In this document: piece after piece, positions 4,657 to 64,000 of the stretch
Layout of the letters: every line of letters begins with the position of its first letter
Position numbering within the stretch: the stretch's first letter is position 1
Origin: Candidatus Woesearchaeota archaeon
Lineage (GTDB): Archaea > Nanobdellota > Nanobdellia > Pacearchaeales > GW2011-AR1
Assembly: GCA_964516745.1 (NCBI GenBank)
Contig: CAZEYD010000001.1
Span: forward strand, 101,047 to 165,046
Reading direction: 5' to 3'
Length of the DNA stretch: 64,000 nucleotides
Position numbers and translations under genes: made by a program
The notes under the pieces: generated by a model
Told to the model about the DNA's origin: nothing
Seen by the model: the letters and a program-made list of their open reading frames with translations, nothing else
Databases searched by the model: none

Positions 4657-5562
4657 TTACTTTTTCTTATTATCTGTTTTTTTATTAAATTTCAGAAACC
4701 ACAACAAATTCATAACAACCAAAACTACAACAACTAAAACTACAGCCACGACAAGACCATCGCCATTATTTTTACTTCCTCTATTATCACTACTAACAGA
4801 ATAGGCCAAACCTAACACCTGCAATTCATCGACATCAACAATAAATTCTAATTCATTTTCTATTTTATTTATGCTATATTCAAGAGTTATATTTACATCA
4901 TAAGAACCCACCTCAACATCACCACTATCCCAAAAAAATGGAATAACCTGTTTACTAAACGGTGCTATATTATAACTAGATGAAAGAACTTTATCAACCA
5001 AAACTCCATTTTTATCAAAAATTTCCAACACTCCACGAATACCACTAACCGGCTCACTCCATTTATTTTCTAAAAGCATATCTACTTTCACAATTTTTCC
5101 CAAATTAAAATCACTAGAATAAATATCTTGCAATTCGATAAAAGATTTACCAACTTTAAATTCTTCTTCTAAATTTAAAACACCCTCGTCATAAACAAAT
5201 GTAACCTTAGCCTTATAATTTCCAATAAGAACATCAGCCTTCCACCGAGATACAATATCGACCTTTTCACCAAAAGGAGCAATATATTCATCACTTTTAA
5301 AATTAGCAATTTCTTCACCCAATTCACTATAAATACTAATATTAGCAAAAACATCTTCTAAACCAAGTTCCTTACGGGAAACAATAGAAAGAATAATTAC
5401 AGCCTCACCGCCAACCTCAGCATTGATAATTTCCAATTTTGAATCTAAACATCCCATCTCTTTAAAATCGCAATCATCAGCAAAAACCAAAGAAAAACAT
5501 CCAATAAAAAATAACGCGAAACAAAACAAACTTATTTTTTTCATATTAAATAATATAACCAT
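4657..5562 (-). CDS. Membrane-anchored surface protein (signal peptide, beta-sandwich-like region, C-terminal TM plus basic tail); paralog of the C-terminal 2/3 of 5582-6793
   Basis: N-terminal hydrophobic MKKISLFCFALFFIGCFSLVFA. C-terminus GLVVAVVLVVVVLVVMNLLWFLKFNKKTDNKKK. Long collinear similarity to the neighbour (NAEVGG.AV...WKADV..GNYKA.V...FIELQD.Y..DF.LG.IVKVDMLLENKWSEP). The start may instead be the ATG at 5544. Confidence 0.7.
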   Translation of the reverse strand: MVILFNMKKISLFCFALFFIGCFSLVFADDCDFKEMGCLDSKLEIINAEVGGEAVIILSIVSRKELGLEDVFANISIYSELGEEIANFKSDEYIAPFGEKVDIVSRWKADVLIGNYKAKVTFVYDEGVLNLEEEFKVGKSFIELQDIYSSDFNLGKIVKVDMLLENKWSEPVSGIRGVLEIFDKNGVLVDKVLSSSYNIAPFSKQVIPFFWDSGDVEVGSYDVNITLEYSINKIENELEFIVDVDELQVLGLAYSVSSDNRGSKNNGDGLVVAVVLVVVVLVVMNLLWFLKFNKKTDNKKK

Positions 5563-5581
5563 ATATTTTTAACCTCTTCGG

Positions 5582-6793
5582 TTATCTTTTCTTTTTCATC
5601 ATCTTTCTGAAAATTAAGAACCACAATAAATTTACCATCACCAACAAACCAACTATAATCAATAGAATTGTCACCATCCCATTATTTCCACTAGATTTTG
5701 TACTTCGTTTATCACTACTTATAACATAACCCAAACCTATCACTTGTAACTCATCGCTACTAACTATTAGTTCTAATTCACTATCAACTTTATTCTCACC
5801 GTATTCTAATGTTACAGTTGTATCATACGACCCTTCGCCGACACCAGCAGTATCCCAGAATGAAGAGACAACCTGTTTACTCAATGGCTCGATATCGTAA
5901 CTAGCAGATGATATTTCATCTAGTAACATTCCTCCCTCACTGAAAATTTCCATAACACTATGAACTCCAATAATAGGTTCACTCCATTTATTTTCCAAAA
6001 GCATATCTACTTTCACAATTTCACCCAAACTAAAATCATTAACATATAAATCTTGCAACTCAATAAAAGCTTCACCAACTTTGAATTCGTCCTCTAAATT
6101 TATAATTTTACCATCATAAATTAAAGCAACCCTAGCCTTATAATTACCAACGGGAACATCCGCTTTCCAATTATAAACAATATCTATCTTTTCACCAGAA
6201 GCTATACTATAACTTTCCGTATTAAAACTATCAATCTTCTTATTCATATCATCATAAACATCAATATTTGCATAAACATCAACCAAATCAAATTCACCAC
6301 GAGAAATAACGGGTATAATAAATACAGCATCTCCACCGACTTCAGCATTAACAATATTTAATTTAGCATCTGCATATTTTCCAGGATATGGAACATAGAC
6401 ATAAACCTGAGTAACAACAGCTAAAGTAGCTCCTACCGAATTAGATGCACCAATAATATCATCAACAGGTTCACTAATAACAATTTCACCAATGTGTAAC
6501 CCAGGACCTAATTCTTTCGGCAAGTTTAAATGATAAAAAACCTCAATCATATCATCACTACTAAGAATCTTCAAATTTTGTTTTTCTAAACTAATATATT
6601 TTGCCAAATCTCCTCTCACACTAATATCCAATTTCATTTCCTTAGCTTCAGAATTAATTACTTTAAAAGTATATTTTGTATTTGTATTAGATGTAAAATC
6701 CAATGTATTTCTAGCAGGAGTTACACCAAGAGCATAAACACTACTAATTAAAAATAAACATGCAAACATCAAAATAATTATTTTCTTATTCAT
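5582..6793 (-). CDS. Membrane-anchored surface protein (signal peptide, extra N-terminal beta domain, C-terminal TM plus basic tail)
   Basis: MNKKIIILMFACLFLISSVYALG signal. C-terminus MVTILLIIVGLLVMVNLLWFLIFRKMMKKKR. Tandem paralog of 4657-5562. Confidence 0.7.
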   Translation of the reverse strand: MNKKIIILMFACLFLISSVYALGVTPARNTLDFTSNTNTKYTFKVINSEAKEMKLDISVRGDLAKYISLEKQNLKILSSDDMIEVFYHLNLPKELGPGLHIGEIVISEPVDDIIGASNSVGATLAVVTQVYVYVPYPGKYADAKLNIVNAEVGGDAVFIIPVISRGEFDLVDVYANIDVYDDMNKKIDSFNTESYSIASGEKIDIVYNWKADVPVGNYKARVALIYDGKIINLEDEFKVGEAFIELQDLYVNDFSLGEIVKVDMLLENKWSEPIIGVHSVMEIFSEGGMLLDEISSASYDIEPLSKQVVSSFWDTAGVGEGSYDTTVTLEYGENKVDSELELIVSSDELQVIGLGYVISSDKRSTKSSGNNGMVTILLIIVGLLVMVNLLWFLIFRKMMKKKR

Positions 6794-7322
6794 CTAAACC
6801 TCCAACATATTTATTATCATCCGCAACACTTCTCTCACTAGGATCTAAACTAATATTTTCTAGAAACTTACTTTTATTATTATAAACTTCAATATTCAAA
6901 CGAACACTACCAGCATTAACAACATCATACCCATCTTTATTCTCTACTAATTCCAAAACAACAGCGTCCTTAATAGTCAATGTTCTAATCTCACTCTCTC
7001 TTATACCAACAACCTTCCAATAATAAACACCAGGTTCAAAAGATAATTTGAAGTTCTTTCGCAAATTAAATTCGTCTGGATCGCTAAAATTCATATTATC
7101 ATCTATCAAAAGTTTATCAGCACTCTTTATAGAAAACAATATTTCAGAACTCGTAGATTCATAATCATCAATTGGAGAAATAACTAATGGAGTAGAATAT
7201 CCTATCAAATATGCAACTGCCAATAAACTTCCAATTATAAAAATCATGTCTAAAACTATAACTGATTTTCGATGCCCGATATCTGATGTCTGACTTCCGA
7301 TGCCCAATGTCCGATTTTTCAT
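6786..7322 (-). CDS. N-terminally anchored membrane protein, 178 aa
   Basis: TM helix VIVLDMIFIIGSLLAVAYLIGY after a 20-aa polar head. Its ATG overlaps the giant gene stop by 1 nt (TAATG), and its 3' end overlaps the next ATG by 8 nt. Confidence 0.6.
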   Translation of the reverse strand: MKNRTLGIGSQTSDIGHRKSVIVLDMIFIIGSLLAVAYLIGYSTPLVISPIDDYESTSSEILFSIKSADKLLIDDNMNFSDPDEFNLRKNFKLSFEPGVYYWKVVGIRESEIRTLTIKDAVVLELVENKDGYDVVNAGSVRLNIEVYNNKSKFLENISLDPSERSVADDNKYVGGLDE

Positions 7323-10300
7323 TATACTACATCCTCCTCGGCGAAACTTGCCTCAAATACAACAGATGAACTCTTTAAACCGGGACCTTCATTCGGCGGA
7401 ACCTCTAAATAAATATCAATCTCAGCAGAATCTTCAGAATCACCATATTTCAATTTATCAATCAAAGTAACACGACCAGTAATACTCATATTCATCCAAT
7501 CAACGATAGAACTCAACCAAGTAAAAGCACCCTCTTTACCAGATCTATTATCCACTTTCGTTTTATAATATTCAGAAGCATTCGGTTGTGTCGCCCACAT
7601 CTGCGTAGCATTAGCAGAAATATTTATCTGGACATTCCCATCATTTTGAATAACAAAGGGCAAAGGATCATCATCACTAGTATCATCACTACTTAACTGA
7701 GCAATATTTCCAAACTCAACATCACTATTAACTAAACTAACAATTACATAAGAATTCATAGTAAAATTAAATTCATCCGTCCAAGCCCCAAAGGCCTCAC
7801 CGTCATGAGCTCGAACTCTCCACGTATAATAATATCCATAATCTCCCAAACATTTCAAATCAACAGTCGGTGTCCAAGAATCATCATTTAAATTAGTCCT
7901 ATTCCTATCATCAGAACACAATCCATCACCAGCACTCAAATGTTCATGAAGTTCAAGTTCATAAGTCAAATCATCACCATCTGCATCATAACCAGTCCAA
8001 TTAAATTCAGGCGTTCTATTAATAACGTCACTACTATCTTCAGGACTATTCAAAGTCACCGTCGGTAAATTATTAAATAAATAAATTGTATTAGACTCCA
8101 TACTCAAACCATCTTCAATCAAATCATTTGGTGTAACCATAACAGACCACCTCTCACCATCAACAGTCTCCTGTGAAACAATCTTCTCAACAGAATGATT
8201 CGCAACCCCAGCATTATAAATTTCATTGATTTGCTCGGCGGACAAAGAACGGTTAAAAATTAAAACTTCATCAATTGAACCGTTGAAATAAAAATAGTTT
8301 CCACTCCAAGAACCAATATTAAAATCTTCACTCGGATTATCGACATAAGAAGTAGGAAATGTTACATCTTTAACTTTTTCTGAATTTATATATAATTTTA
8401 GACTATCTCCATTCATTACAAAATTCACATAATACCAAGTATTTAATTCCAATGTCTCTGTCGTTACATATTCCAAACTTGAAGTTCCTGTATGTCCCCT
8501 AAATCTTAATTTACCTAGATTAGAAACAGCAAAGAAAAACCCCTGATTACTACTATATTTTTCAAAAATAGCTGCACCAACATTTGCATCAGTTGAATAT
8601 TTATTTAATTTGATCCAAGCTCCGCCTGAGAATATACTATCTTCATCAAAATCTTGAAAAGGAACAGATATATAATCATCATCCCCATCAAACTCATACG
8701 CACCACCAACTTTTCCACCACTAATATTCCATATCGCACAAAAAACAGTCCCATTATTCTCATTCTTAGAATAATCTCTCGTCCATGTAGAATTACTACC
8801 ACCTTCAAACGGCATATTCAAAACAGCCAAACTTTCATTCTCCACTCTCCAATCCGTAATATTAAAAACTGTATCCTCAGCATCAAAATCATGCGATTCA
8901 ATTGTAACCGATAAATTATCATACGCCCTATCATCTCCACTAGAAGAATTCAGAACAACAGAATCTGCAACCGGAGCAGTATTTATCCTTGTCCAAACTC
9001 TTTCTTCCGTCGCATTACAGTTATCCGCCAAATCACAGGCCGACGCACTATAATAGTAATCGCCACGAGATAAATTCGTCATATTCATAGATAAAGACCA
9101 TCCACTAGTAGATGATTTTTGTAAATTTGATTTATATAATAAATCTATTTCATCGGCGGACAAAGAACGATTATAAACACGAACTTCATCGATTTGACCA
9201 CTGAAATATTGACCACCATCACTTAATCTTCCAATCATATTATTTTTATCTGCCGTTAAAGTAGCAGTATAAGTTTCAGTATTATCCAATTGTCCATCTA
9301 TATATATTTTACCAACTCCATTATCATAGCTACAAGTTACATGATACCATTTTCCTATGTCTAAAGAATATGTTGAATATATAGTACCTGTAGTTAAATA
9401 AAATTTTATATAATTACTTCCTAATCCTGCAGATGAGTCTGCAACCCCAGTTACCCATCTACTATTTCCATTTGAGAAAATCGTTTTACCCATTTGATCT
9501 TCATTTAATTTTATCCAATGAGAAACTGTAAAAGTAGAAGTTGTTCCCATAATGTTTCTTTCCAAATCAACATAATTATCATTCCCATCAAAACTCATCG
9601 CCTTCCCAAACTTTCCACTATCAGTATAACTAGCCCCAACAACCGCACCATCATTTCCGTTTCCACTCACATCACTAACAAAACTATCATTTTCTTCTAA
9701 TGAACTCAAATTCTGAAAATTCATAGCTAAAACCAATCCATCTTCCAAAGAACTCAAGTTCGTCCCATTCCAACTAAAATTCAAATAACCTAAGCTATAA
9801 TCAGAAATCGAAATCTTTGCTTCCATAGAAGTATTCGTAGTCACCGTCGCATTATCAGGAGTTGGAAAAACGAATTGGATTTGTGGTGCCGCCGTATCAA
9901 CATAAAAAGGACCGAAACGAACAACTGAACCATAATTATCAGCGCCATCCAAAGCCTTAACATGAAAATAATTTGTTCCCTCAGTTGTTGGACAACTATA
10001 ATTCAAATCTGTAGTATTAATCAAATCATTCGGGATACTCGCTTGCCAATCATCACACAAAACAGAATACCCAGCAACATCAGTTGTTACACTCTCATTA
10101 TAAATTCTATATAACTTTGCATCATCCCACCAAATAGTACCACCAGCACCGCCATCATTATCCACTCTAACTGAAACATATCTCGTACCAACAGGGCATG
10201 TTTTGGACACCTCTGATTTTTCCCATGCAGTTTCAATAGTTTGAGAATTAGATACTAATCCATATGCAGAATAATCAAAATTAGAATCCAAACAGAAAAT

Positions 10301-13300
10301 ATATAATTGAATGTTCCTAGAAGAATCTGATTTCGCATAAATAGAATATTTGAATGTCGCAGCAGAATCCCCGCTAAGATTAATTAAAGGAGCACTACTA
10401 CCAACATAAGGACTAGTATATGAATCAGTACTAGTCGCAACATGTTTCAAAGATTGATTCCCGTTACGACTCACAGAATCGTCAATTGATATATCTCCTC
10501 TAGTAGCGCTAAAATAAGGAGAACTCAAAACATTCCTCTCAAAACTACCATCCCTAATAATACTTCTCTCATTCCCCTCACTATCCTCAGTACCAGCATG
10601 ATAAAAATAATCATCACCAGAATCTGTCGCAGCATCCCAGCTAAAGTTAATAACACTAGAAGTAGAAAATCCACCTTCAACAATATCAGAAGAATTTAAA
10701 TTAGAAATACTCGTTGGAGAAGTTCTATCAGAACCAGATAAATCCAAATAATTAGAACTAGAAACATTCCCACCATTTACTTCAAGTTTAAGATTATCAA
10801 ATAACAATTGATATGTAGAGTCTTGTTGGTAATTTATCAAAAATAACAATCTAACATATCGTGTCCCGTGCCAAAATGCGCCACTATAACTTGCACCACT
10901 CAGATATTCACCACTCATCACACTAGTACTACGTTTTGTCCATGTTGTTGGAATATATGAAGAACTAGCAGCAGAATACATAAAAGAGGAACCACTAATA
11001 TGCATTCTTACTTTAGTCCCAGCAGGATACGTTTTACCAACAGTTGTTGAAAATTCAATTTCGCAATAATCTCCCATATTTTGAACTCGTATTATACCTT
11101 GATTACTCATATCCCTATTAGGTAAATCCGCATAATTACCCGAATCATCAATATTAAATACCATACGAGCATGAGAAAGCACATACCAACTTAAACAATC
11201 AGGAATCTTAACTATTTTATCTGTGGAAACAATATCTTCATATAGAGTAGTCTGTGTATTGGATCTAACATTAACTTGTTCATTCGTAATCTGTTGCTTG
11301 TTCTTATCATAAGGGACGAACCCATAATATAACCTACTTAATCCACCACTACCATTTGACTTAAGCATTCCACTCAAAACATATTCAGAATTCATATCAA
11401 TTGGAATATATTGTGATCCAGTCACTGTTTTTCCACCCGTTTCATAAAATGCATAATCTCCCTCATAACTATCACTAGTAAGTCCATCAAATCCAAAATT
11501 AGTCGAATCTCCTAACTCAGCATCACCATTAACAATAGGAACACCAACATCCAAATACGTTCCACTCTCTGTCTCTGATCTATAAATTTTATGTTTAATC
11601 AAACCAGACTGCATATCGTCAATAATTTCTTCCTGAGTCAAAGAACGATTGTAAATTCTTACTTCATCGATCTTTCCAGTAAAATAATCATAAATTTCCG
11701 ATGTTTGTATTGGTAATGATTCACAAGTATTCTTACTCCATTGAGCACCAATAATAATTGGGTTTCCAGAGCCAGAACCATCAGTACTAGAATCTCCGCT
11801 TACTGTTTGTTCAATACCATTAACATAAAGTTTTACACCAGTTGACCCAAAAGGTTTTACCCAAGTTACATAATATATTTCCTCATTTGTTAAAATCGCA
11901 TCAGAACTATGAGTAACAAAGGTTGGAGCAGTATAATATCCAAAATAAAGTCGATTATTTTCAACATACATATTAAACTGACCATTATTGTTACAACCAT
12001 ATCTCCTTGAAAGAAGAGATTGTTTTGATGAATAACCACTTCCTTCAATCCAAAAACTATATGTAAAATTTCTTCCAACAGTATTAAACATACTGTCTCC
12101 AGTTAAATTAATATAATCCTCACTGCCATCAAAACTCAACGCACCACCATTTCCATCATCACCATTCACCCAACTCGCGCCAACAATCGTTCCAGTATTT
12201 TCCTCTCCACTCCAATCACTAGTTGTCGACCCTGTCCCCTCTTCAAAAGACATATACAAAATCAATCCTTCATCCGTCTCATCATTCTTCACATTAATTC
12301 CATTAGCTGAACTATTTTCTAACAATTCAAAAAACGGATTCAACGGCGCCGTTCTATCAGCAGTAATATTATACGCAATATTACTATAACCAGAATATGA
12401 GCCACCAACAAAACTTCTAATCTTATAAAAGAAAAGCAAATTATCATCCAGATCGTCATCAAAATAATCAACAACATTACTACCTACCGTATCAACCTCG
12501 ACAAAACTAGAATTGTCTCCACTTCTCTCAACGCTAAATCCATCCTCACCACCAGAATTATCATCCCAAGTTAAATTCAAAGATCCCAATTCAGAATTCA
12601 ATGTCTTATTATTAACAACACTAACATTCAATCCAGTCGGAAGCATATTAACTTCCAAAGAACGCAAAGACGAGTTTACATTCCCAGCCAAATCTTGAGC
12701 ATAAACAGTATAATTATAAAATCCATTAGAAACATCACTAAATACATTTCCATATTGATCAGTCTGCGCATCATAAATTGACTCAATCTCGGAATCTGAT
12801 AACGCCCGACTAAAAATCATAATATCGTCAATTGAACCGTGCCATGGTTCTCTACTTGTTATATCCAAGGAATCATAAACATAAGCTCCAATAACTCTAT
12901 ATGAATCATATCCAGCACTAACACTAGCTTCTGAATCAAAAACACCATTAACATATAATTTATGACTATCTCCATTTCTAACCAAACTTACATAAGACCA
13001 AGAATACCTAGTTAAAGCCGAACCAGTAACTCTACCATATAATTGAAATTGTAATGAACTATCCGGACATCCCCACTGCGGACTCCCTTTATTACTTAAT
13101 ATATTAAACCAATCACTATCTGTTGCAGCATCCGGATAAACCCAGGCACTAAGAGTATATCTATCCCCAACATTTATCTGAGAAAAACTTACATAATCAT
13201 CCACCCCATCAAACTCATACGCCAAACCTCTCTTCCCACCTGTAACATTCGGACAGGTAGAACCACTACAAATTCCATCGTTTCCATCGCCAGAAGAATC

Positions 13301-13999: not shown

Positions 14000-14257
14000 T
14001 TATTGACCTGTTTGTTGTAGACATTCAACAGCAACAATATTTAACGTTGTATTACCGTATGTTAATGGTATAGGAGCTTGACAAGTAGATACTCCGTTCA
14101 TAACATCCAAATAAGACTGTTGATAACCTACATTATAAGCATTTGTCAATTGATTTTGTTGAGCACGAACATAAGCACCATAACCAATATAACCAACAGC
14201 ACCAAGTAACAAAAGACCCAAAACGATAGCAATTATAATTGATGTTTTTATTTTCAT
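14000..14257 (-). CDS. Small N-terminally anchored membrane/secreted protein, 85 aa
   Basis: MKIKTSIIIAIVLGLLLLGAVGYIGY hydrophobic start. GGAGGT SD lies 7 nt upstream. It sits 12 nt upstream of the giant LamG gene. Confidence 0.55.
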   Translation of the reverse strand: MKIKTSIIIAIVLGLLLLGAVGYIGYGAYVRAQQNQLTNAYNVGYQQSYLDVMNGVSTCQAPIPLTYGNTTLNIVAVECLQQTGQ

Positions 14258-14433: not shown

Positions 14434-14475
14434 GTTTCTTTTTCCCAGGGCTTTTTCTTTACAAAGAAAAAGGCC
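14434..14475 (-). terminator. Conserved hairpin / oligo-U terminator-like element, copy 2 (abuts the stop of the 2139-aa gene); half-copy at 14401-14424
   Basis: Minus strand: GGCCTTTTTCTTTGTAAAGAAAAAGCCCTGGGAAAAAGAAAC. A perfect 10-bp stem (CTTTTTCTTT/AAAGAAAAAG) is followed by TGGGAAAAAGAAA. Confidence 0.5.
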
Positions 14476-26746: not shown

Positions 26747-27291
26747 CAATCACTCCTTCCAATTTTTCTCTAGGACTCTTCACACCCTCAATATCCAATT
26801 CCTCGACCTCCAAAACACCTTCTATCATCATTTATTTTCTTAGAATTTACAAAAAAATCAACAGCACCAAAAGACATCAAAAACTCTAAACAAAACACCT
26901 CACATACCATCTTTATTTTAAGAATTTATTATATATAAAGTTAAGGATTCTATCACAAACACCCTCAATAAATAGACAAAATATCCAAATTTATTTCTAA
27001 AATATAATCAAAGTAAAAAGAGAAAAATTCTACACTCTAATTTCCTTCAAAATCTAAATTTCAACCTATAAACTTTCTACTAAAATTACTAATTTCATCA
27101 TAGAAATTAACACCATCAATCTAAGCACAGATTTTCTTCACCATAATGAAAAATCCTATCATATTCACCACATAACAGGAAATAAAACCAGAATTTTACC
27201 AAAGTAAATTAAGGCATCCTACATCACAATACAATCAATTCTTTTTATTATTTAAATCTTACTATAAAACTGAATTTCATACAAGAATAGC

Positions 27292-35337: not shown

Positions 35338-35373
35338 CTTTCTCTCCCAGCAATCCAATGTCCGATTCAATTC

Positions 35374-36505: not shown

Positions 36506-36553
36506 TGTATTCTTATAATACCCTACTGTATTCTTTTAATATTATAAACTTTC

Positions 36554-53468: not shown

Positions 53469-53898
53469 TCCCGAAAACCTCCTGTAACTCTTTTCTAATT
53501 TTATCTACCTTAACGCTTGTCAATTTGGAAAAAACATCTCTTGATAAAACAAAGAAGTCATAAACATTATCCCAAATCAAATTCAAATCACTCTTATTAA
53601 CATCTCTATCAACATAATATTGTAAATTTCTCCTAACCAATAACGCCCTATCAATTAAATCAAAATACTTCTCCGAATAAAATTCAGATAAAAACCTCTT
53701 CATAAACTCTAAAGAACAACCATGAATATCACATCTAATACCAATTTTTTGCATAACAGCATAGAGAGAATAATAAATTGAATAATAACCCGCAGAAATA
53801 CTAAACCTAACACTTTCCTTCCTTTCCCTATCCATTGTTCCAAAAGCCTCTTCCGCCATTTTTAAATATCCAGAACCAATTCGTTCATTCGGCTCCAC
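53458..53898 (-). CDS. HEPN-domain protein (pair C)
   Basis: 146 aa, helical. YLKMAEEAFGTM start, GIRCDIHGCSLEF His helix, LLVRRNLQYYVD (R-x4-Y). Confidence 0.65.
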   Translation of the reverse strand: MEPNERIGSGYLKMAEEAFGTMDRERKESVRFSISAGYYSIYYSLYAVMQKIGIRCDIHGCSLEFMKRFLSEFYSEKYFDLIDRALLVRRNLQYYVDRDVNKSDLNLIWDNVYDFFVLSRDVFSKLTSVKVDKIRKELQEVFGNEK

Positions 53899-53933: not shown

Positions 53934-54509
53934 TTAAACTAACGATTTTATCACCTCACCAACAAACAAATCCCCACCCTTTACCAAAACATGATTTTTC
54001 AATATCTCCTGGTAAATCTCTTTATTACTTTTAATCATCTGAGCAAAATCCCTAGAAGAAACATTAAATATCTGAACATCTATCCCATATTTCTTACCTA
54101 ATTTTTGAATACTCAAAGAATCCACCTTCCCAACAATTAATAAATCCAAATCCGAATTCTTAGTCGCCTTATCACTAGCATAACTACCAAAAACACAAAC
54201 GATATCACCACCAACTTGCCTAAAAAAATCAATAAGTCTCTTATTCTTTTCCAGAAATTCCAAACTATTAAAATTCTCAAATAACAAAACATTCTCAATC
54301 AAAAGAGGATTCAGTAAATTTAACTCATAATATTTTCTATTCCCACTCTGAATAGAACTAAGAATCCCATCATTCTCTAAATCCGTCAAAGTCAAAGCTA
54401 TATTCTTTTGACTTAAAGACACCTTCCCAACTAATTCTCTCCCATAAATCTTAGAAGTATATCCGTTCAAGAACATTTTCATCACCTCAAAATATTTGTT
54501 GTGTAACAT
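53934..54509 (-). CDS. wHTH + minimal nucleotidyltransferase protein (pair C)
   Basis: wHTH-like LSQKNIALTLTDLENDGILSS. NTase signature VFGSYASDKATKNSDLDLLIVG. TTTATAAG box lies ~35 nt upstream. Confidence 0.75.
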   Translation of the reverse strand: MLHNKYFEVMKMFLNGYTSKIYGRELVGKVSLSQKNIALTLTDLENDGILSSIQSGNRKYYELNLLNPLLIENVLLFENFNSLEFLEKNKRLIDFFRQVGGDIVCVFGSYASDKATKNSDLDLLIVGKVDSLSIQKLGKKYGIDVQIFNVSSRDFAQMIKSNKEIYQEILKNHVLVKGGDLFVGEVIKSLV

Positions 54510-57800: not shown

Positions 57801-60800
57801 AACTCTTCCACTTGAACTCAAATATAAATTTGCCCTCGCATAATTAGCAATCATTTTTGCATTACTTCCTTGTGTTCCACCAGAATTAAACCACAACGAA
57901 AAAGTAAATGGATCACCAATATTAATATCAGGAGCAGTAGATTCCACATAATCATCAGCGCCATTAAAACTCAACGCTTCACCATTTCTATCTTTACCAT
58001 CTACATAAGATAAACCATTATAATGAGTTCCATCATGGTCCTCTACGCTCCAATCACTAGCCACCGTTCCGCTTCCTTCTTCAAACGGCATATATAATAC
58101 CAATCCATCATCTCCTTCCGCAGTTTCAATATCAATTCTATTATTCGCAACACTCGCAGTCAAATCAAATTCAGGACTATCAGGACCAGTTCTATCAGCC
58201 GTCAAATTACAAACCGTCGAAGACCAGGCAGAAGAATGCACAGCACCAGAATCTTGAACTCTAACTCTATAACAATACTCAATATTATCATCTAAAGAAA
58301 GATGTGTATAACTCAAAGAACTACCATTATAAAGACTCAACGACGAAGGACTAGTCATCTCTAAACCATATTCATAACTCGCAGGCAACGAACCAGTCCA
58401 AATCACAACAATTTCACCCGATTCAGAGATCAATGGAGAATCTGTTTGAGGACTTACACTAGAAATAACAGGAACAGAAACACCAGCACAATTATTTGTC
58501 GAGTTACAATATTCACTCGCATCACAATCTGAATCAGAACAACAATCAGAATAAGCTCCATCATCAGAACAAGAAGTCCCAGAACAAGAAGCTCTAATCC
58601 AATCCCCAGAACAACAAACTTTTGTTTCACCACCAATAGTACCCGTGTCAGTATTTGCAGTACAACTTCCAGCAGTAGTAATACTCACAGGAAAACTAAT
58701 CTCTAAATCCAAACAACCATTACTAGGACAAGTAATTTCATCTGCACCAACACAAGCTAAACCACTACTAGCACTATAATTATCAAAAGTATTGTCATCA
58801 ACATAAACATCATTATCTCCACAGAAATCCTCACAACCATCAGAACTAGTATAAACATCACCATCATCATTATTACTATCAGCATAACCAGCCGCACAAT
58901 CAACATAATTACATTTACTGTCAGTACATGTTGGAGCTGTTCCTGAAACATGAGGCAACCCTTCACAATTATAAGTGCATCCACCACACGCATTATCAGA
59001 AATAGTTAAATTAATACATTTTCCAGAGTCAAAATTACTACAAAACGTTGTTCCAGAATGACAAGACAACTGACAATCGCTATCATAATTATCTCCACCT
59101 GTTCCACAAGCAGCCCTAAGATCATTATCCGCACAAGTTGGTCCGGGTTCAGCACCACAACCATTATTATTATAACTAAACATATTAAAATCATGAAGAG
59201 AATATAAAGTGCCATCAGAAGAACATTCGTCACCACAATCCCCAGTTAAACACTTTAAACTACTCTTTGCATTACATAATCCAGACGTACAAACACCAAC
59301 ACCACACTCTGTTCCATTAACACAAGTTTCATCAGGATCACGACGACAAAACCCATTAGTTGCTTCCGCGACACCCTGACAATTAGCATTATATCCAATA
59401 TAACAACTCATATCATAAGATGTATCAGAACACATAGCATCACTATCACTATCAATTACAGAAGCATCATCACAAGCAACATTAAGAGCCTTCTGAACTG
59501 CACAGTTTCCAGAATTATTACAAAAGAAACCACTAGAACAATCAGAATGAGCATCACAATCTAAAGTACATTCACAATCAGACGAACATTCACCATTACA
59601 ATCAGAGTCCTGAACACAATCATCCGTCGTATCATCACCATTACAACAAGTATAAACACTAGACCAATATCCGTCAATACCAGTCGCTCCACAAGCAGTC
59701 TCATCATCATCAGCCGCCAACCAAGTTCCACTAGAACAATATTCTTTATCATCATCATCATCCCCACCACCTGTATTTTTAGTTACGGCATTATTATAAC
59801 AACCCCAAGATCCAGCAGGTCCACCAGTAGATGCATGATGTCCCATTTCCCAATCATCAACACAATCAGTTGAAGCATCACAACAAGAAGAAGAAGAACT
59901 TAAATCAACAGCACCGACTTCTGAAACTAAATAACCGACCATAACATCAGCAATAGCAAAACAACATTCATCAGCTTCAAACTCAAAAACATTCCATCCT
60001 GTTACAAATTGAGAAGTTGTAGTATCATTAAATGCCCAATATGCCCAATCATTATTACCAGAAGCAAATGAATTTGAAAAATATGTTTTATTAATTCTCA
60101 AAGTAAAATCATCATCCTCTTCCTCTGTATCATATGTATCATACATTATACAAGTATCAGATGTAGAAGTTAAAGAAATGTTAAAACACATATCACCAAA
60201 AGGATTATTATTTCTAGATGTTGTATCAAAAACACCTCTAGTTAAGGCAAAACAAGTATCACATTGATATCTTGCAGTCGAAGAAGTATCTGTATCACAA
60301 GTATTATATGTTCCACACTCTGTATCCGAATCACAACAACCAGCATTAACTCCATCACGACAACTTAGATATCCAACACATTCATTAGTTGTACAATCCG
60401 TACAGGTTCCCGTACTACAATACTGCCCACCTCCACAATTACTAGGGTCCCATGCCCCATTAGTACACAACCAATTCATACCATTTTCATCGTTATCTCC
60501 AGTCTCATAACAATCAGTCGCATCTCCAGTTTGACCAGAGCTACCAGTATCTACAGTTGTCCCATCATAAACACAATCATTAGAATCACCAGCACAAAAA
60601 CACTGTTCATTTATATCACAAAATCCATCGGTATTACTATCAACATCATCATAATCATCACGACAAAAATCAGAAGAACAAGCTCCATTACTTTCTGCAG
60701 AACTATCACTTTCCGTTATGCCAAAGTCACAATTCGATCCTGTTCCAAGTTCAGCATCACAAGTCCCATCTTCAGCACAAAAGAAACCAAGCACACAATC

Positions 60801-63800
60801 AGCATTCACAGAACAAGTATTAATACAATCATCCGTTACAGTGTTACATCTATACCCATTAGCAGTATCACATTGGGTATTCGTCAAACAATCCTTCCAT
60901 GTTCCACCAATACAATAATCAACATCAGCATCACCATCAGCATTATGAGTCAAAAGACCAGCAGCATAACAAGTATTATCGTCAATACATTTTCCAGAAG
61001 CCAAACAACAAGCTTCATCACTAGTATCTGTTGCATAACTCAAATCCATAGATACATCAGCAAGTCTCCAAAGATAACTTTCATCCGCATCATCACCACA
61101 ACAACCAAGAGTCGCAGTATTTGCATACTCTCCAACCCCAGCTTCCCCCGAAAAAACAGCATTCCAGTCCTGATCAGGATTACCACTATCTCTTGGACTA
61201 GAGACACCCTTTGCAGGACCACAAACATTACCACACCAATAATCCATAAAATCTGATTGATCACATTCTAACCATTTACCAACACCTCCACTATTATAAC
61301 AATGAGATTTATTATCATCACCTCCAACATTTAAACCAACATCAGTTGTTCCGGCATTTTGAACAGCATAACAAATCCCTCCAGCAACACAATCAGAAGC
61401 AACATTACAACAAGCAACTTCATTATTATCAAAAGCTATAGAGGTACTATATGTCTCCTCCATATTATAATTCTCACTTGCATCATCACCACAACAAAAA
61501 CCATTACTAGCTGTTCCATCACCACAAGTAACACCATCACTACAATCAGTACTATCTGTTTCTCTATCTCCACTTGTTATCGATGTCCAATCACTTCCTA
61601 AAGCACTACAAAAGCTTGTAGAATAATCACCATCAAAGGCCTGACATAAACTTGTAGAAGAAACATAACAAGAACTAAAAGCAGGACAACCCCGAAAATT
61701 AAGCCCAATCCCAGTATTATCTTTTGAATAACCTGCAGATTGCTCATCAGCAAAAATATCAACAGCATTGCCAGTATCATATTCACATTTTGTTGCCTCT
61801 TGGTTATCATATAGACTGTTAGTTCCAGTTGGTGTATAACAATGAAAATCATCAGTAGCACCTACTAAATCATCATCACAATGTCCATTAGCACAAGCAC
61901 TAGCATCCTCACTAGCACTATTCACAAAACTAACATCATCACAACCAGCACCATCTAACAATTGCGCTTGACAAAGTTGTGAATTATTACAAAAGAAACC
62001 AACACCACAATCAACGTTCACATTACAAGTATTGATACATTTATTTGTATTACATCTATAACCATTACCAGTATCACAGTCAGGAGTGGAACAACAATCA
62101 GAATAATCACCATCATCAGAACAAGAAGTCCCAGAACAAGAAGCTCTAATCCAATCTCCCGAACAACAAACCTTTGTTTCACCACCAATGCCAATGGTAT
62201 CCGTACCAGTATTTGCAGTACAACTTCCAGTTGTAATTGTCGTGGGTGCACTAATCTCTAAATTAAGACAACCACTACTCGCACAGTCAACATTACTAGA
62301 ACTATCACAAGCTAAACCACTACTATCATCAAAATCAGAAAACGTATTGTCGTCAACATAAACATCATTATCTTCACACCAATCTTCACAACCAGTACAA
62401 ACACCATAAACACAACCATCATCATTATCACTATCAGCATAACCAGCATCACAATCAACATAATTACATTTGCTATCAGTACATGTCGGAGCCGTTCCTG
62501 AAACATTTGGCAATCCTTCACAATCATTAGCACATCCACCACACGCATTATCTGAAATTGTCAAGTTAACACAATATCCCCATAAATTAAAAACTGGCGC
62601 GTTAGAACAATAAGTAGTACCCGCAAAACAAGAAGTTTGACAATCACTATCATAAGTATCACCAACGCCACCACAATTATTCACACTACCATCATCACCA
62701 CAAGTTGGTCCAGGTTCAACACCACAACCATTGTTATTAGCACTAAACATATTAAAATCATGAGTAGAATAAGTTGTTCCATCATAAGAACATTCAGTTC
62801 CACAAGATCCAGTTAAACATTTATCAACACTTTTAGTATTACATAATGCAGCAGTACAAACACCAACACCACAATGATTTCCACTAGTACAATCTTCACC
62901 AGGATCACGACGACAGAAACCTGATGACGCCGCCGCAACACCTTGACAATTAGCATTATATCCACTATAACAACTCATAGCATAAGTACCATCAGAACAC
63001 ATCGCATCACTATCAGTATCATACACAGAAGCATCAGCACAAGCAACACCAACACCTTTCTTTACAGTACAAATTCCAGCATTACTACAATAATAATTAC
63101 TATTTGCACTCGTACAATCCGAATGCTGAGTACAAGTATTAATACAATCATCAGTAGCTGTATTACACCTATAACCACTAGTAATAGCACATTGAGCATT
63201 AACATTACAATCTTTCCATACACCAGCATCACAATAATCCAAATCACCATCATTATCTAAATCAAATGTTTGAGTATTGGTTTTTAAACAATTACTTCCA
63301 GCACAATCATTAGTACTATTATCATGATTCGGATCAATTAAACAAACTCCACTAGCAACACAAATATCACTACCATCAAGCTCAGTACAAATAGCACTAT
63401 CCATTGAATCACACACTCCAGAATCTCTCAAAATGTCATAATTAGTATTCTGAACACACCTACCATTAGTACACGCCGAACTAGAATCACACTCTTCATA
63501 ACCATCATTACGCGTATAGACACAATCAGAAGTCGTACAAGTAGCAGAACATTCACCAGCAACATTACAAATATCACTTGTCTCAGTCCCAGCATAAGAA
63601 CCACCCGTTACATTACAAGTAGTAGCAACTGTAGCGGTTGTACAATCTTTCCATACACCAGCATCACAATAATCTAAATCATTATCATTATCTAAATCAA
63701 ATGTTTGAGTATTAGTTCTTAAACAATTACTTCCAGCACAATCATTAGTACTATTATCATGATTCGGATCAATTAAACAAACTCCACTAGTAACACAAAT

Positions 63801-64000
63801 ATCACTACCATCAAGCTCAGTACAAATAGCACCATTCATTAAATCACACACTCCGGCATATATCAAACTATCATAATTTGTATTCTGAACACATCTACCT
63901 CCATAGCAACCTATATCCCTATCACACTCTTCAAAACCATCATATCTCTTATAAAAACACCTCTCCCCATAATTTGTTATAGAATCACAACTTTCGTGAC
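54828..64000 (-). CDS. Mega-protein, >3056 aa, 5' end outside window: Cys-rich/DxDxDG repeat region - FN3-like - LamG - CBM-like modules - Gly-rich domain - C-terminal triple beta repeat
   Basis: The track start at 63866 is a TTG inside a repeat. The frame stays open to 64000 (..HESCDSITNYGERCFYKRYDGFEECDRDIGCYGGRCVQNTNYDSLIYAGVCD..). Cys is very abundant in the first ~1700 aa. LamG end: LLDEVRIYDRTLTQEEVIDDMQSGL. Modules paralogous to the 2221-aa protein include AATDSGDDYFY and DNYFHV.A.DGA.N.G.V..FGPF. Confidence 0.85.
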   Translation of the reverse strand, partial: HESCDSITNYGERCFYKRYDGFEECDRDIGCYGGRCVQNTNYDSLIYAGVCDLMNGAICTELDGSDICVTSGVCLIDPNHDNSTNDCAGSNCLRTNTQTFDLDNDNDLDYCDAGVWKDCTTATVATTCNVTGGSYAGTETSDICNVAGECSATCTTSDCVYTRNDGYEECDSSSACTNGRCVQNTNYDILRDSGVCDSMDSAICTELDGSDICVASGVCLIDPNHDNSTNDCAGSNCLKTNTQTFDLDNDGDLDYCDAGVWKDCNVNAQCAITSGYRCNTATDDCINTCTQHSDCTSANSNYYCSNAGICTVKKGVGVACADASVYDTDSDAMCSDGTYAMSCYSGYNANCQGVAAASSGFCRRDPGEDCTSGNHCGVGVCTAALCNTKSVDKCLTGSCGTECSYDGTTYSTHDFNMFSANNNGCGVEPGPTCGDDGSVNNCGGVGDTYDSDCQTSCFAGTTYCSNAPVFNLWGYCVNLTISDNACGGCANDCEGLPNVSGTAPTCTDSKCNYVDCDAGYADSDNDDGCVYGVCTGCEDWCEDNDVYVDDNTFSDFDDSSGLACDSSSNVDCASSGCLNLEISAPTTITTGSCTANTGTDTIGIGGETKVCCSGDWIRASCSGTSCSDDGDYSDCCSTPDCDTGNGYRCNTNKCINTCNVNVDCGVGFFCNNSQLCQAQLLDGAGCDDVSFVNSASEDASACANGHCDDDLVGATDDFHCYTPTGTNSLYDNQEATKCEYDTGNAVDIFADEQSAGYSKDNTGIGLNFRGCPAFSSCYVSSTSLCQAFDGDYSTSFCSALGSDWTSITSGDRETDSTDCSDGVTCGDGTASNGFCCGDDASENYNMEETYSTSIAFDNNEVACCNVASDCVAGGICYAVQNAGTTDVGLNVGGDDNKSHCYNSGGVGKWLECDQSDFMDYWCGNVCGPAKGVSSPRDSGNPDQDWNAVFSGEAGVGEYANTATLGCCGDDADESYLWRLADVSMDLSYATDTSDEACCLASGKCIDDNTCYAAGLLTHNADGDADVDYCIGGTWKDCLTNTQCDTANGYRCNTVTDDCINTCSVNADCVLGFFCAEDGTCDAELGTGSNCDFGITESDSSAESNGACSSDFCRDDYDDVDSNTDGFCDINEQCFCAGDSNDCVYDGTTVDTGSSGQTGDATDCYETGDNDENGMNWLCTNGAWDPSNCGGGQYCSTGTCTDCTTNECVGYLSCRDGVNAGCCDSDTECGTYNTCDTDTSSTARYQCDTCFALTRGVFDTTSRNNNPFGDMCFNISLTSTSDTCIMYDTYDTEEEDDDFTLRINKTYFSNSFASGNNDWAYWAFNDTTTSQFVTGWNVFEFEADECCFAIADVMVGYLVSEVGAVDLSSSSSCCDASTDCVDDWEMGHHASTGGPAGSWGCYNNAVTKNTGGGDDDDDKEYCSSGTWLAADDDETACGATGIDGYWSSVYTCCNGDDTTDDCVQDSDCNGECSSDCECTLDCDAHSDCSSGFFCNNSGNCAVQKALNVACDDASVIDSDSDAMCSDTSYDMSCYIGYNANCQGVAEATNGFCRRDPDETCVNGTECGVGVCTSGLCNAKSSLKCLTGDCGDECSSDGTLYSLHDFNMFSYNNNGCGAEPGPTCADNDLRAACGTGGDNYDSDCQLSCHSGTTFCSNFDSGKCINLTISDNACGGCTYNCEGLPHVSGTAPTCTDSKCNYVDCAAGYADSNNDDGDVYTSSDGCEDFCGDNDVYVDDNTFDNYSASSGLACVGADEITCPSNGCLDLEISFPVSITTAGSCTANTDTGTIGGETKVCCSGDWIRASCSGTSCSDDGAYSDCCSDSDCDASEYCNSTNNCAGVSVPVISSVSPQTDSPLISESGEIVVIWTGSLPASYEYGLEMTSPSSLSLYNGSSLSYTHLSLDDNIEYCYRVRVQDSGAVHSSAWSSTVCNLTADRTGPDSPEFDLTASVANNRIDIETAEGDDGLVLYMPFEEGSGTVASDWSVEDHDGTHYNGLSYVDGKDRNGEALSFNGADDYVESTAPDINIGDPFTFSLWFNSGGTQGSNAKMIANYARANLYLSSSGRVYFLVYNNSGYQSIYSDVLSNDQWYYASGVYDGSEISLYINGSLAQSKTIGTSGRDFTSSMGIGRDYSDWTGYFEGLLDEVRIYDRTLTQEEVIDDMQSGLLKHGFYQSETSSGDYVPLEGISDDFGDGDATNDPTWEALYSSLSATNNYLEILSTTGDEARGYVSEDLSSNLMIEFDTLVDVGEYIMWGFLASPYTWTVANPTNGVRCWTDISDPTTTTKTDIVEFESGGASTNFDIKSARDIVIPDIVNDEWVHVKIIKYGNNYKMFVNDIFSYEAIDDTFADTTLRLFLGTASGGDIHFDNVKVTPLVASDIYSDTTATDDTDPSAVGSLDSSSHDEGGISSNTTATFDWTAATDSGDDYFYFLKEWDVDGNEDSKTENPGFEQSMTDWSSYTQADISISIDNNVAYSGNKSYKITRILDNDGNNEWGGLKATNVYSRWNLEPGKSYVLEFDYMGDRVATDGVSVYLCYTVGWCSMGNGWPTESLTSISGSSSNTSGAWEHYTGEFDYTEAFSTACDGATCMKELKIGFSYLAQNLGTEYFWIDNVMIHEADSSTITTGLSNYRVACDQVASTTPDETIIYDGDYVVQTFTSDGTFTPSAAGNVEVLLVAGGGGGSEGIYDDGSGGGGGGVVIDTVAVTEQSYTITVGAGGAALSNGQNSAAFGLTAIGGGRGAGHRSTNTYGGGSGGGAGGAYASTDGGDGITNGGIATVGQGFNGGDNTYRAYAGSGGGGGSAVGTSATEGVGGAGGTGVLSSISGTATYYAGGGGGYGGTSGGVGGSGGGGTCVNPSTVTTAGTVNSGGGGAGGSSDRTSRASAGGSGIVIIRYLSSVASPGYVCTDLPDGDNYFHVLAVDGAGNTGAVSHFGPFNIFAVGPPSANRFEVRGGVGTDLAFVDDKGDMYLKGEVSISQSSLSPSIDSFIIQNSSGGVVSFFDSNGDLFLKGIVDVGSDLSGSGTRLEFQNSTDDVVAFLDSSGNLKLQGGFVENYL
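55316..55990 (-). other. Glycine-rich domain (poly-G strands alternating with short beta segments)
   Basis: NVEVLLVAGGGGGSEGIYDDGSGGGGGGVVIDTVAVTEQSYTITVGAGGAAL..NSAAFGLTAIGGGRGAG......GGGSGGGAGG...GGGGSAVG...GGAGGTG...YYAGGGGGYGGTSGGVGGSGGGG...SGGGGAGGS...AGGSGIVIIRY. It resembles the glycine-rich domain seen in phage-tail-fibre-like and other large surface proteins. Confidence 0.5.
58535..59560. repeat. ~1.03-kb intragenic segmental duplication, copy B
   Basis: Collinear with 62085-63130 (offset ~3.55-3.57 kb). Shared strings include GETKVCCSGDWIRASCSGTSCSDDG.YSDCCS, NLTISDNACGGC..NCEGLP.VSGTAPTCTDSKCNYVDC.AGYADS.NDDG and HDFNMFS.NNNGCG.EPGPTC. Confidence 0.85.
62085..63130. repeat. ~1.03-kb intragenic segmental duplication, copy A
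   Basis: See 58535-59560. Confidence 0.85.
63195..64000. repeat. Tandem 435-nt (145-aa) coding repeats at the 5' part of the mega-gene, at least 2 units in the window
   Basis: 63200-63430 and 63635-63865 are near-identical (ATCTAAATCAAATGTTTGAGTATT at 63255 and 63690). Each unit encodes GRCVQNTNYD...GVCD...AICTELDGSDICV.SGVCLIDPNHDNSTNDCAGSNCL.TNTQTFDLDND.DLDYCDAGVWKDC. Confidence 0.85.

Follow-up and report, generated by a model that had tools for sequence, protein, structure and literature searches.

A single-strand island of giant lectin- and fibre-type secreted proteins, punctuated by toxin-antitoxin-like and candidate defence genes, in a Woesearchaeota/Pacearchaeota-type archaeon

Why should an archaeon with a small genome and probably a symbiotic lifestyle carry nine giant genes for secreted proteins on one strand, and why are small toxin-antitoxin-like and candidate antiviral genes lodged among them? 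The question is raised by forward-strand positions 101,047-165,046 of contig CAZEYD010000001.1 (assembly GCA_964516745.1), a stretch of 64,000 nt here called the window, which we analyzed computationally. DPANN archaea, which form a large share of archaeal diversity, presumably live in attachment to hosts, and we know of no cultured host-symbiont pair for the Woese- and Pacearchaeota. We propose that the region is probably a recombining flexible-genome island of secreted lectin and fibre surface proteins for attachment, which collects toxin-antitoxin and defence modules. As expected of a DPANN island of LamG and fibre proteins, Laminin_G_3 domains occur in five giants and YadA_stalk segments in four, with Sec signals, all on one strand over 59 kb.

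Judged from its sequence, the host is a Woesearchaeota/Pacearchaeota-type DPANN archaeon. Positions 1-4400 hold archaeal housekeeping genes (ParA/MinD ATPase, L44e, S3Ae, nucleoside diphosphate kinase, and YbjQ), and S27e, an archaeal ribosomal protein of the same left flank, was called on the longer contig. The relatives of the nucleotidyltransferase (NTase), HEPN, Bro, and giant genes described below come overwhelmingly from metagenome-assembled genomes labelled Woese-, Pace-, or Nanoarchaeota, and these labels, together with the flanking archaeal ribosomal proteins, place the host among the DPANN.

We surveyed all open reading frames (ORFs) of at least 100 amino acids (aa), leaving out shadows of longer ORFs. 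Every surveyed ORF from 4008/4657 to the right edge lies on the minus strand, and the nine giants (G1 to G9; Table 1) sum to 47,690 nt, or 74.5% of the window and 80% of positions 4657-64000. GC skew tracks the coding strand, and a chance origin of uninterrupted ORFs of this size is ruled out in DNA with the G+C content of the window (31-40%). All eight complete giants have a single N-terminal hydrophobic segment of the Sec signal type, with a classical signal-peptidase site (VSA|K) in several of them. A preliminary description of this DNA had placed all supported genes from 4657 to the right edge on the minus strand, had given the nine giants about 47.7 kb or some 74% of the window, and had seen a Sec-type signal wherever the N-terminus falls in the window; the survey bore it out on each point. 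It had also reported three pairs of winged helix-turn-helix (wHTH) NTase and HEPN genes (here NT1/HEPN1 to NT3/HEPN3), Bro-N/DinD-like genes (Bro1, Bro2, and decayed copies), one Fic gene, and small membrane proteins between the giants, and all of these were confirmed.

When all complete giants were scanned, no C-terminal membrane anchor was found in any. The signal peptides of G4 and G5 are nearly identical. In G6, the long start (40475) puts a basic 56-aa stretch before the hydrophobic segment, and the true start may be Met57 at 40307. Giants of three related loci (L013:12946, L015:5316, and L167:1989; L numbers are our handles for loci) share a conserved basic, cytoplasmic motif, MVYKKYIKR..(G)PY.Y.S.R, before the hydrophobic segment, which suggests an uncleaved N-terminal signal anchor in those proteins; the basic extension of G6, if the long start is real, differs from this motif.

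The giants fall into two mosaic families, namely, fibres (G2, G3, G7, and G8) and multi-LamG lectin-like proteins (G1, G4, G5, G6, and G9). In the latter, the Pfam matches to Laminin_G_3 are strong (E 1e-26 to 1e-93), G9 having one copy and each of the others three or four. G3, G4, and G6 (twice) match only the first 60-70 residues of Fibrinogen_C, YCDMTTDGGGW among them, the best E being 1e-17. The match covers profile positions 3-71 of 221, compared with ~220 aa for a complete fibrinogen-related domain (FReD) fold, and an AlphaFold2 (AF2) model of G6 residues 95-335, for which the alignment consisted of four paralogues from the window, had a predicted local distance difference test score (pLDDT) of 31.7, too low for the model to be of use. 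As the best solved relatives are a serum lectin, intelectins/XEEL, FIBCD1, and fibrinogen beta, we call the domain fibrinogen/intelectin-like, a putative assignment confirmed for the N-terminal subdomain only. The fibres, on their side, are marked by VGIGT-type motifs, 5-10 in each of the four and nowhere else, and by YadA_stalk segments; G7 has five stretches of these (E 2e-30), G3 and G8 also match the profile, and G2 does so weakly. The Pfam scan revealed stalk segments only, with no YadA_anchor beta-barrel in any giant. The first ~1900 aa of G9 contain ~11% Cys and DLDNDxDLDYCD loops. Among the domains that the preliminary description had named, LamG, the YCDxxxxGGGW fibrinogen-like domain, and the VGIGT repeats stood, whereas CBM_4_9 is sub-threshold (E 0.02-0.07) and the strict DxDxDG motif occurs once, in G9.

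Searches against solved structures gave no match for G7 and, for G9, nothing but a LamG-type match. The ENA contig with the locus runs on for 3253 nt beyond the window. Relatives of G9 are rare; a homologue search, which did not recover full-length G9 itself, gave only three proteins, all distant, at E<1e-20 among 5.8 billion, one of them a 3925-aa Aenigmarchaeota giant annotated as 'DUF2341', and the gene contains an internal duplication of ~1 kb (58521-59523 versus 62073-63090, 78.5%). An NCBIfam match of G1 to 'TafC fimbrial protein' was rejected; it covers profile positions 183-363 of 373 only, at the LamG-type repeats, and lies far below the cut-off.

From this domain content and from published equivalent loci of other DPANN archaea, the most likely function of the giants is attachment to host cells or surface glycans; G2, G3, G7, and G8 would be probable trimeric fibres, and G1, G4, G5, G6, and G9 would be multi-lectin proteins. 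The same folds could belong to an ordinary envelope or to nutrient capture, the giants then being S-layer components or polysaccharide-binding or polysaccharide-degrading enzymes. Glycoside hydrolases and S-layer-associated proteins, too, contain LamG/ConA-like and CBM-like folds, and the solved structures matched by G6 include an 'S-layer domain-containing protein' (4qvs, E 9e-9) as well as a module of an arabinanase (5hon). However, Pfam-type scans detected no catalytic domain in any giant, the CBM_4_9 matches do not reach the threshold, and nine divergent mosaic paralogues are unlike a lattice-forming S-layer gene, and we consider an envelope or enzyme role very unlikely. The domain assignment thus answers the check that the preliminary description had proposed, pointing to lectin- and fibre-type secreted proteins and not to enzymes or S-layer lattice proteins.

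The fibres also bring to mind an integrated virus or a virus-derived tail-fibre cluster, in which the fibre giants would be receptor-binding proteins and the Bro-N and Fic genes would be viral accessory genes. G3, G7, and G8 match tail-fibre PHROGs (2710, 9942, 18345, and 25848), G7 also matches a head-decoration PHROG, and Bro1 matches phrog_15286 over its full length, Bro-N being a classic virus and prophage domain. PHROGs of unknown function (25032 and 5906) are matched by G7 and G2, the only kind of PHROG match that G2 has. Nevertheless, no capsid, portal, terminase, integrase, or tRNA was found in the 64 kb (Pfam and PHROGs on the scanned ORFs, and a tRNA scan), IMG/VR gives two weak partial matches to G8 and none to NT1, housekeeping genes directly abut the array, each fibre has a cellular Sec signal, and the Bro-N family is chromosomal and widespread across archaeal phyla; a viral origin is therefore highly improbable. 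In YadA_stalk segments and repetitive architecture, the fibres resemble YadA trimeric autotransporters and phage tail fibres, and in modular shuffling and tail-fibre PHROG matches they resemble phage receptor-binding proteins. They differ from YadA adhesins by the missing YadA_anchor barrel (archaea have no outer membrane) and from phage tail fibres by the absence of a Peptidase_S74 chaperone domain, by the Sec signal, and by a chromosomal context without virion genes.

The preliminary description had held the organization to be undescribed, which did not stand, since its core, LamG arrays together with a trimeric-autotransporter-like adhesin on ~6% of a DPANN genome, is published (PMC10266531, PMC7443923, PMC5498576). 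Ca. Nanohalococcus occultus has three LamG genes in one operon with a 1693-aa trimeric-autotransporter-like adhesin and a knob/MSCRAMM protein, and its nine surface-protein genes (PKD- or LamG-containing, adhesin-like, and knob/MSCRAMM) occupy 5.85% of the genome (55,476 bp) and have been read as serving host attachment; Ca. Nanohalovita has 14 such genes on 6.15% of its genome (PMC10266531). Organism-specific LamG lectin-like proteins are presented as a common host-specific attachment system of nanohaloarchaea and 'ARMAN' in two further papers (PMC7443923, PMC5498576). The clusters so described (the SVXNc_0798-0813 region, Ca. Nanohalovita, and the LamG proteins of Ca. Nanohalobium and 'ARMAN' Mia14) share with the window a DPANN host and several secreted proteins with up to five LamG/ConA-like domains, and the SVXNc cluster likewise groups multi-LamG genes with a trimeric-autotransporter-like adhesin, in nine genes of ~55 kb. 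By contrast, the window belongs to another phylum-level lineage (Woese/Pacearchaeota type) and to a non-halophile, its fibres bear VGIGT/tail-fibre-like repeats, it has fibrinogen/intelectin-like domains and extensive sharing of modules between paralogues, and wHTH-NTase/HEPN pairs head its operons, with Bro-N/DinD and Fic genes interleaved, which the accessible nanohaloarchaeal accounts do not mention. SPEARE-type giants of Nanohaloarchaeota (SVXNc_0300, 9409 aa) are likewise very large Sec-dependent DPANN surface proteins implicated in host interaction; they are single 26-28-kb genes whose products combine arrays of Ig-like domains with a membrane segment at the C-terminus and an ATPase domain of VirB4/TraG-like type (PMC10266531), and none of these features was found in the giants of the window. 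In the published work that we searched and read, we found neither VGIGT fibres with fibrinogen/intelectin-like domains nor comparable module sharing between paralogues, and no recurrent wHTH-NTase/HEPN subfamily that, with a conserved operator, heads giants or lies between them. Attachment-gene islands are thus already known in related archaea, and the island described here is headed and punctuated by toxin-antitoxin-like and candidate antiviral genes.

The recombining character of the island is suggested by its repeats. Compared all against all, the giant proteins share blocks of 58-86% identity at differing positions in different giants, and self-comparison of the DNA gave 48 direct repeats (E<1e-20) and zero inverted ones. 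The best repeat joins G2 and G7 (89.1% over 589 nt), the fibrinogen-like domains of G3 and G6 are 87.8% identical over 551 nt of DNA (72% in aa), G7 and G8 share repeats of 84-86% over 570-640 nt, and the blocks of G7 common to G2 and G8 have 82-89% DNA identity. The array would have expanded by tandem duplication of giant genes, and all genes and all 48 internal DNA repeats would therefore be co-oriented, as they are; diversification would continue as paralogues exchange modules of 100-600 nt.

Since modules are mosaically common to paralogues, programmed hypervariation has also to be weighed, with the giants varying antigenically through a diversity-generating retroelement (DGR), through inversion of a promoter, or through conversion from silent cassettes. 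In related locus L165, a DGR (bAvd, reverse transcriptase, and FGE-sulfatase target) adjoins an NT1-type pair and fibre genes. In the window, however, Pfam scans of the ORFs found no reverse transcriptase, the mismatches of the eight best repeat pairs have no adenine bias, there are no inverted repeats of at least 40 nt and no meaningful tandem repeats in the 5' regions, and every giant has its own start and signal. Moreover, the locus is present in six independent assemblies (three ENA ERZ2731xxxx, JGI 3300023292, and Logan SRR7529099 and SRR8526173), all 100.000% identical to the window. We give programmed hypervariation the least credence of all the explanations considered. The shorter assemblies of the locus end inside giants, as the internal repeats of these would lead one to expect, and the window contains no Rfam family. 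As for L165 itself (L165:4498-14116, Logan SRR24079432_13051), a complete-looking DGR consisting of a bAvd-like gene, an RVT_1 reverse transcriptase, a target of the FGE-sulfatase fold, and two NYN proteins lies directly upstream of the NT1-type NTase/HEPN pair; the HEPN stop overlaps a 996-aa fibre gene, and a phage-type integrase lies at the contig end.

We then have to account for the small genes. By their matches, they are assigned to toxin-antitoxin or candidate defence families, namely, type VII-like NTase/HEPN (PDC-M05), Bro-N/DinD (PDC-S13), and Fic (SoFic/PDC-S04). All three NTases match PADLOC PDC-M05A (E 1e-7 to 1e-15), with additional matches to Polbeta and NTP_transf_2, and the G, S, D, and D of the GS...DxD motif are invariant in two NTase alignments; the MntA_antitoxin profile gives 19.8 bits versus a cut-off of 60. 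None of the three HEPN proteins matches any PADLOC model. Among 77 aligned HEPN sequences, R121-x4-Y126 and N79-H80 are conserved, and the Rx4-6H RNase motif is absent, with no His 4-6 residues after the Arg. Proteins of the HEPN-T/PF05168 class often carry a different residue in place of this His and keep a conserved His at another site (PMC3710099, Anantharaman et al.), a description that the HEPN proteins of the window match. NT1/HEPN1 and NT2/HEPN2 overlap, and a gap of 35 nt separates NT3 from HEPN3. The pairs resemble type VII toxin-antitoxin HepT/MntA and PDC-M05 in the NTase gene lying 5' of an overlapping HEPN gene, in the GSx(n)DxD motif, in a conserved Tyr in the C-terminal part of HEPN, and in the PDC-M05A matches. 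They are unlike HepT/MntA in the N-terminal wHTH fused to the NTase, in an HEPN of the PF05168 (HEPN-T) type, which has R-x4-Y in place of Rx4-6H and a conserved N-H at another site, and in the giant secreted-protein genes that come next, often with overlapping codons.

The two intact Bro proteins match PADLOC PDC-S13 over their full length (Bro1 residues 5-275 versus profile positions 1-269 of 286, E 8e-115; Bro2, E 1e-113). A reasonably confident AF2 model of Bro1 (pLDDT 73.7) resembles Deinococcus DdrC, a DNA-damage-response DNA-binding protein (Foldseek probability 1.0, E 1e-5, TM-score 0.36-0.50), and because of this resemblance the modeled Bro1 would fit a role in DNA binding rather than at the surface. 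The Fic protein matches Pfam Fic (4e-14), PDC-S04 (1e-21), and SoFic (1e-15), with NCBIfam SoFic far below its cut-off, and the motif HxFx(D/E)GN(G/K)RxxR is present with Ser replacing Gly/Lys (Table 1). According to a 2026 survey, DPANN archaea are poor in CRISPR and restriction-modification and enriched in AbiE, SoFic, and several candidate systems, PDC-M05 (NTase plus HEPN) being archaeal-enriched with an unconfirmed antiviral role (PMC12988326).

The distribution of these genes in relatives argues in part for passive accumulation. The spacers of the array are gene graveyards, with a Bro-N relic, a relic of a gene known from L111, and a split Bro-N pseudogene; among the Bro copies, two are intact, one is fragmented, and one is a further relic, so that two of four are decayed. 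The Bro-N/DinD family has at least 8000 candidates, all at E<1e-10, and the best 120 matches, which are 62-74% identical to Bro1, extend to Methanoperedens, Altiarchaeales, and Aenigmarchaeota. The large genes near the Bro-N/DinD gene in 80 metagenome loci are mostly DUF262-like, helicase, restriction-like, or housekeeping genes, with fibre or LamG neighbours in L085 only and perhaps in L091 and L111. The wHTH-NTase family has at least 646 matches, and a genome scan gave 68 loci with NT2-type relatives, all but a few labelled Woese-, Pace-, or Nanoarchaeota, in most of which an HEPN gene of ~158 aa comes next (HEPN2 homologues in 67). The gene that follows is on the same strand in 18 of 42 loci and reaches at least 600 aa in two of those, one with a signal, so that a giant comes next in only 1-2 of 42 other loci. 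Bro-N/DinD and the NT2-type pair are so rarely syntenic with giants that neither belongs to a conserved giant-gene system. In L013, the order small transmembrane ORF, G1-like giant, p178, and p403 is kept as in the window, but there two NTase/HEPN pairs occupy two junctions that stand empty in the window. Related loci have a background of ~2 wHTH-NTase genes per 100 kb, which the array, with 5 per 100 kb, exceeds only ~2.5-fold. 'Preferential attachment' of defence and mobilome genes to archaeal islands has been described (PMC6393860). Small modules would thus settle and decay at the few permissive junctions of an array that is 80% giant ORF. The preliminary description had read a fixed order of pair, giants, Bro-N or Fic, and terminator as one system, and this was not upheld, given the scarcity of Bro-N and NT2-type genes near giants and the decay of two of four Bro copies.

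Two of the related loci deserve mention here. In L045 (L045:3-10851), an NT2-type pair lies between two LamG giants (~1588 aa) on the opposite strand, a junction-type insertion. L085 (L085:1-9157, Ga0208647_1000624), the closest relative, shares its building blocks and their orientation with the window, in the order G5-like LamG gene, Bro-N fragment, intact Bro-N/DinD gene (72%), Bro-N fragment, two unrelated genes, and fibres; the fibres at its end are an 857-aa protein with a G7-like N-terminus and then a G2-like one.

Other results weigh against the island reading, above all the behavior of the NT1 type. NT1-type NTases from ten lineages, with 50-85% mutual identity, define ten loci beyond the window (L013/14, L015/16, L084, L111, L165, L166, L171, L172-175, L176, and L177), and in nine of these the pair shares its strand with homologues of the fibre or LamG giants that bear a signal, the exception being L084, where the contig ends right after HEPN. 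A count free of homology, which asks for a same-strand ORF within 3 kb of at least 500 aa (or open-ended and at least 300 aa) with a signal or an open 5' end, gave 8/10 for the NT1 type versus 7/65 for NT2-type loci (Fisher p = 1.4e-5). In the window, L165, L168, and L172, an HEPN gene ends inside the start of a giant (overlaps of 4-11 nt overall); the overlap is 4 nt in L165 and L172, 11 nt in the window at HEPN3-G8, and 8 nt at HEPN2-G6 if the long G6 start is real. This co-localization is not easily explained by passive accumulation, and the NT3-type pair probably co-localizes with giants as consistently. In addition, the giants bear cleavable signals yet have no C-terminal anchor for retention on the cell, Pfam-type searches assign no family to most of G2, G7, and G8 or to the first 1900 aa of G9, and the six assemblies of the locus show no variation, so that they do not demonstrate ongoing recombination. 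The suggested check of small-gene synteny in relatives was accordingly answered in part, in favour of the NT1-type pair but not of the Bro-N gene or the NT2-type pair.

These observations could mean that the NTase/HEPN pairs, especially those of the NT1 and NT3 types, are working parts of the giant operons, as regulators, addiction modules, or both. In the first case, the wHTH would bind a conserved GTATTA operator, and adhesin expression would depend on the state of the toxin-antitoxin-like pair; in the second, the pairs would penalize the deletion of costly giants by recombination between long direct repeats. Consistent with the first, all ten NT1-type genes have upstream a TTTATAA box, then an (A/G)TATTAAAA repeat, and, 10-17 nt ahead of the ATG, a GTATTA without variation, often within the palindrome AGTATTAAAATAATACT, which looks like a promoter and putative operator for the fused wHTH; further copies of the operator in the window were only one-mismatch matches inside coding sequence. 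With regard to the second, the direct repeats (up to 589 nt at 89% identity) could delete up to 28 kb by recombination, and stabilization of genomic islands by toxin-antitoxin modules has precedent (PMC8978831). Furthermore, the three pairs of the window have a mutual identity of only 21-30%; they are thus old and independent, and duplication together with the giants did not produce them. On the other hand, the NT2-type pair stands directly before G6 in the window yet hardly ever before a giant elsewhere, no pair occurs in the G1 operon or in the G3-Bro1-G2 unit, the pairs of L013 sit at junctions that are empty here, and the HEPN proteins, putative toxins, are without the Rx4-6H RNase motif. 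Same-strand arrays of giant, NTase/HEPN pair or pairs, and giant recur in relatives, but the NT1-type pair can stand upstream of the giants, downstream of them, or between them, as a resident of a rearranging island would, and the ten NT1 lineages may go back to one ancestral island and so would not be independent. We regard a functional module as possible but unlikely. Slightly more doubtful is its specific form, in which the NT1-type and probably the NT3-type pair was recruited as the head of giant adhesin operons, a toxin-antitoxin-like switch that gates the fibres and penalizes loss of giants by recombination. The attachment island that accumulates small modules remains the reading we prefer.

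Seven transcription units were predicted from spacing, overlaps, and A/T-rich promoter-like spacers: (1) G9; (2) NT3-HEPN3-G8-G7-Bro2; (3) NT2-HEPN2-G6; (4) NT1-HEPN1-G5-G4; (5) Fic; (6) G3-Bro1-G2; and (7) small transmembrane ORF-G1-p178-p403-p301. Counting Fic together with the G3-Bro1-G2 genes leaves about six units. Genes within a unit would be co-transcribed. Because three modules sit at operon heads, the promoters of the small modules, which may be autoregulated, probably also drive or modulate the giants, at least as a by-product. Of the shared terminator in the preliminary description, there remain two similar A/T palindromes, after G2 and after Fic, and one common 15-mer, but nothing more. 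A scan for sigma-70 promoters and intrinsic terminators gave counts equal to those of shuffles; these are bacterial-type models and not meaningful for an archaeon.

Table 1. Coordinates of the giant genes and of the small genes and elements interleaved with them.
Feature	Position in window	Strand	Description
G9	54828->64000	minus	>3056 aa, N-terminus outside window; Cys-rich repeats (~1900 aa), then Laminin_G_3 and Gly_rich_2
NT3	53934-54509	minus	wHTH and minimal nucleotidyltransferase, PDC-M05A-like; head of predicted unit 2
HEPN3	53458-53898	minus	no Pfam match, aligns with HEPN1 and HEPN2; stop overlaps G8 start by 11 nt
G8	48762-53468	minus	1568 aa, fibre family; Sec signal, 10 VGIGT motifs, YadA_stalk, tail-fibre PHROG matches
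G7	42547-48765	minus	2072 aa, fibre family; five YadA_stalk stretches
Bro2	41672-42550	minus	Bro-N/DinD-like, full-length PADLOC PDC-S13 match; start overlaps G7 stop by 4 nt
Relic ORF	41523-41648	minus	41 codons; homologue of a 220-aa gene after the NT1-type pair in L111
NT2	40928-41503	minus	wHTH-NTase, widespread 191-194-aa type
HEPN2	40468-40941	minus	PF05168; overlaps NT2 and, by 8 nt, the long-form G6 start
G6	36843-40475	minus	1210 aa, LamG family; two fibrinogen/intelectin-like domains and three Laminin_G_3
Bro-N relic	36642-36705	minus	MVSEKKLIVFED*..., downstream of G6
Promoter/operator-like element	36506-36548	minus	upstream of NT1: TTTATAA box, then ATATTAAAA, GTATTA...GAATAC
NT1	35717-36505	minus	262-aa wHTH-NTase, C-terminal extension; subfamily accompanying giants in relatives
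HEPN1	35374-35745	minus	PF05168, overlaps NT1; G5 4-36 nt downstream, gap without promoter-like sequence
G5	32788-35370	minus	860 aa (849 from Met12), LamG family; three Laminin_G_3
G4	29386-32745	minus	1119 aa, LamG family; fibrinogen/intelectin-like domain and three Laminin_G_3
Fic protein	28093-29256	minus	Fic domain, motif HPFSDGNSRVTR; PADLOC PDC-S04 and SoFic matches
Bro-N/DinD pseudogene	27292-27762	minus	fragmented: two ORFs, 56 and 91 aa
G3	21821-26749	minus	1642 aa, fibre family; fibrinogen/intelectin-like domain mid-protein
Bro1	20891-21799	minus	Bro-N/DinD-like, PDC-S13; between G3 and G2, stop overlaps G2 start by 4 nt
G2	14475-20894	minus	2139 aa, fibre family; A/T palindrome 14448-14475 after gene
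Small membrane protein	14000-14257	minus	85 aa, single transmembrane segment, upstream of G1; homologue upstream of G1-like giant in L013
G1	7322-13987	minus	2221 aa, LamG family; four Laminin_G_3, Toxin_R_bind_N, Big_13; 58 N-glycosylation sequons
p178, p403, p301	4657-7322	minus	membrane proteins overlapping or abutting G1

At the left end of the array, p403 and p301 combine a signal and Ig-like domains, the latter distantly similar to WxLIP_HBD, with a C-terminal transmembrane segment and a basic tail. Their family (~400 aa) is large and uncharacterized, with 2358 representative clusters if the threshold is set at E<1e-3 and 516 if it is set at E<1e-30; WxLIP_HBD is weakly matched by 18 of 30 members of the p403 family, all far below the Pfam threshold, and the family profile found nothing useful among solved structures. 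The p178 and p403 pair also adjoins giants in L013 (L013:11134-12806). In signal, Ig-like domains, C-terminal transmembrane segment, and basic tail, p403 and p301 resemble WxLIP of the WxL operons of Gram-positive bacteria, which likewise share an operon with large secreted proteins without an anchor of their own; the window is unlike those operons in its far sub-threshold WxLIP_HBD matches, in giants without a WxL domain, and in its archaeal host. As to the mode of anchoring, we infer that the p403/p301 family may tether the anchor-less giants. A second small ORF with a single transmembrane segment lies at 4430-4610 (~59 aa), below the 100-aa cut-off like the one at 14000-14257.

In conclusion, the value of this locus lies mainly in a testable link between the NT1-type pair and giants and in a catalogue of candidate attachment modules for an uncultured lineage. 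The island provides a concrete list of separable lectin modules (LamG, fibrinogen/intelectin-like, and fibre tips), which are potential probes for hosts or surface glycans, and its mosaic paralogues suggest how a repertoire may be diversified without a retroelement. A caution also follows, in that 'candidate defence' genes nominated through guilt by embedding may occupy surface-protein islands for reasons other than antiviral ones. The NT1-type pair and its conserved operator offer a testable handle on the regulation or retention of attachment genes, and, if true, the recruitment of the NT1 and NT3 types would mean that a toxin-antitoxin module has been domesticated to control and stabilize the attachment repertoire of a symbiont.

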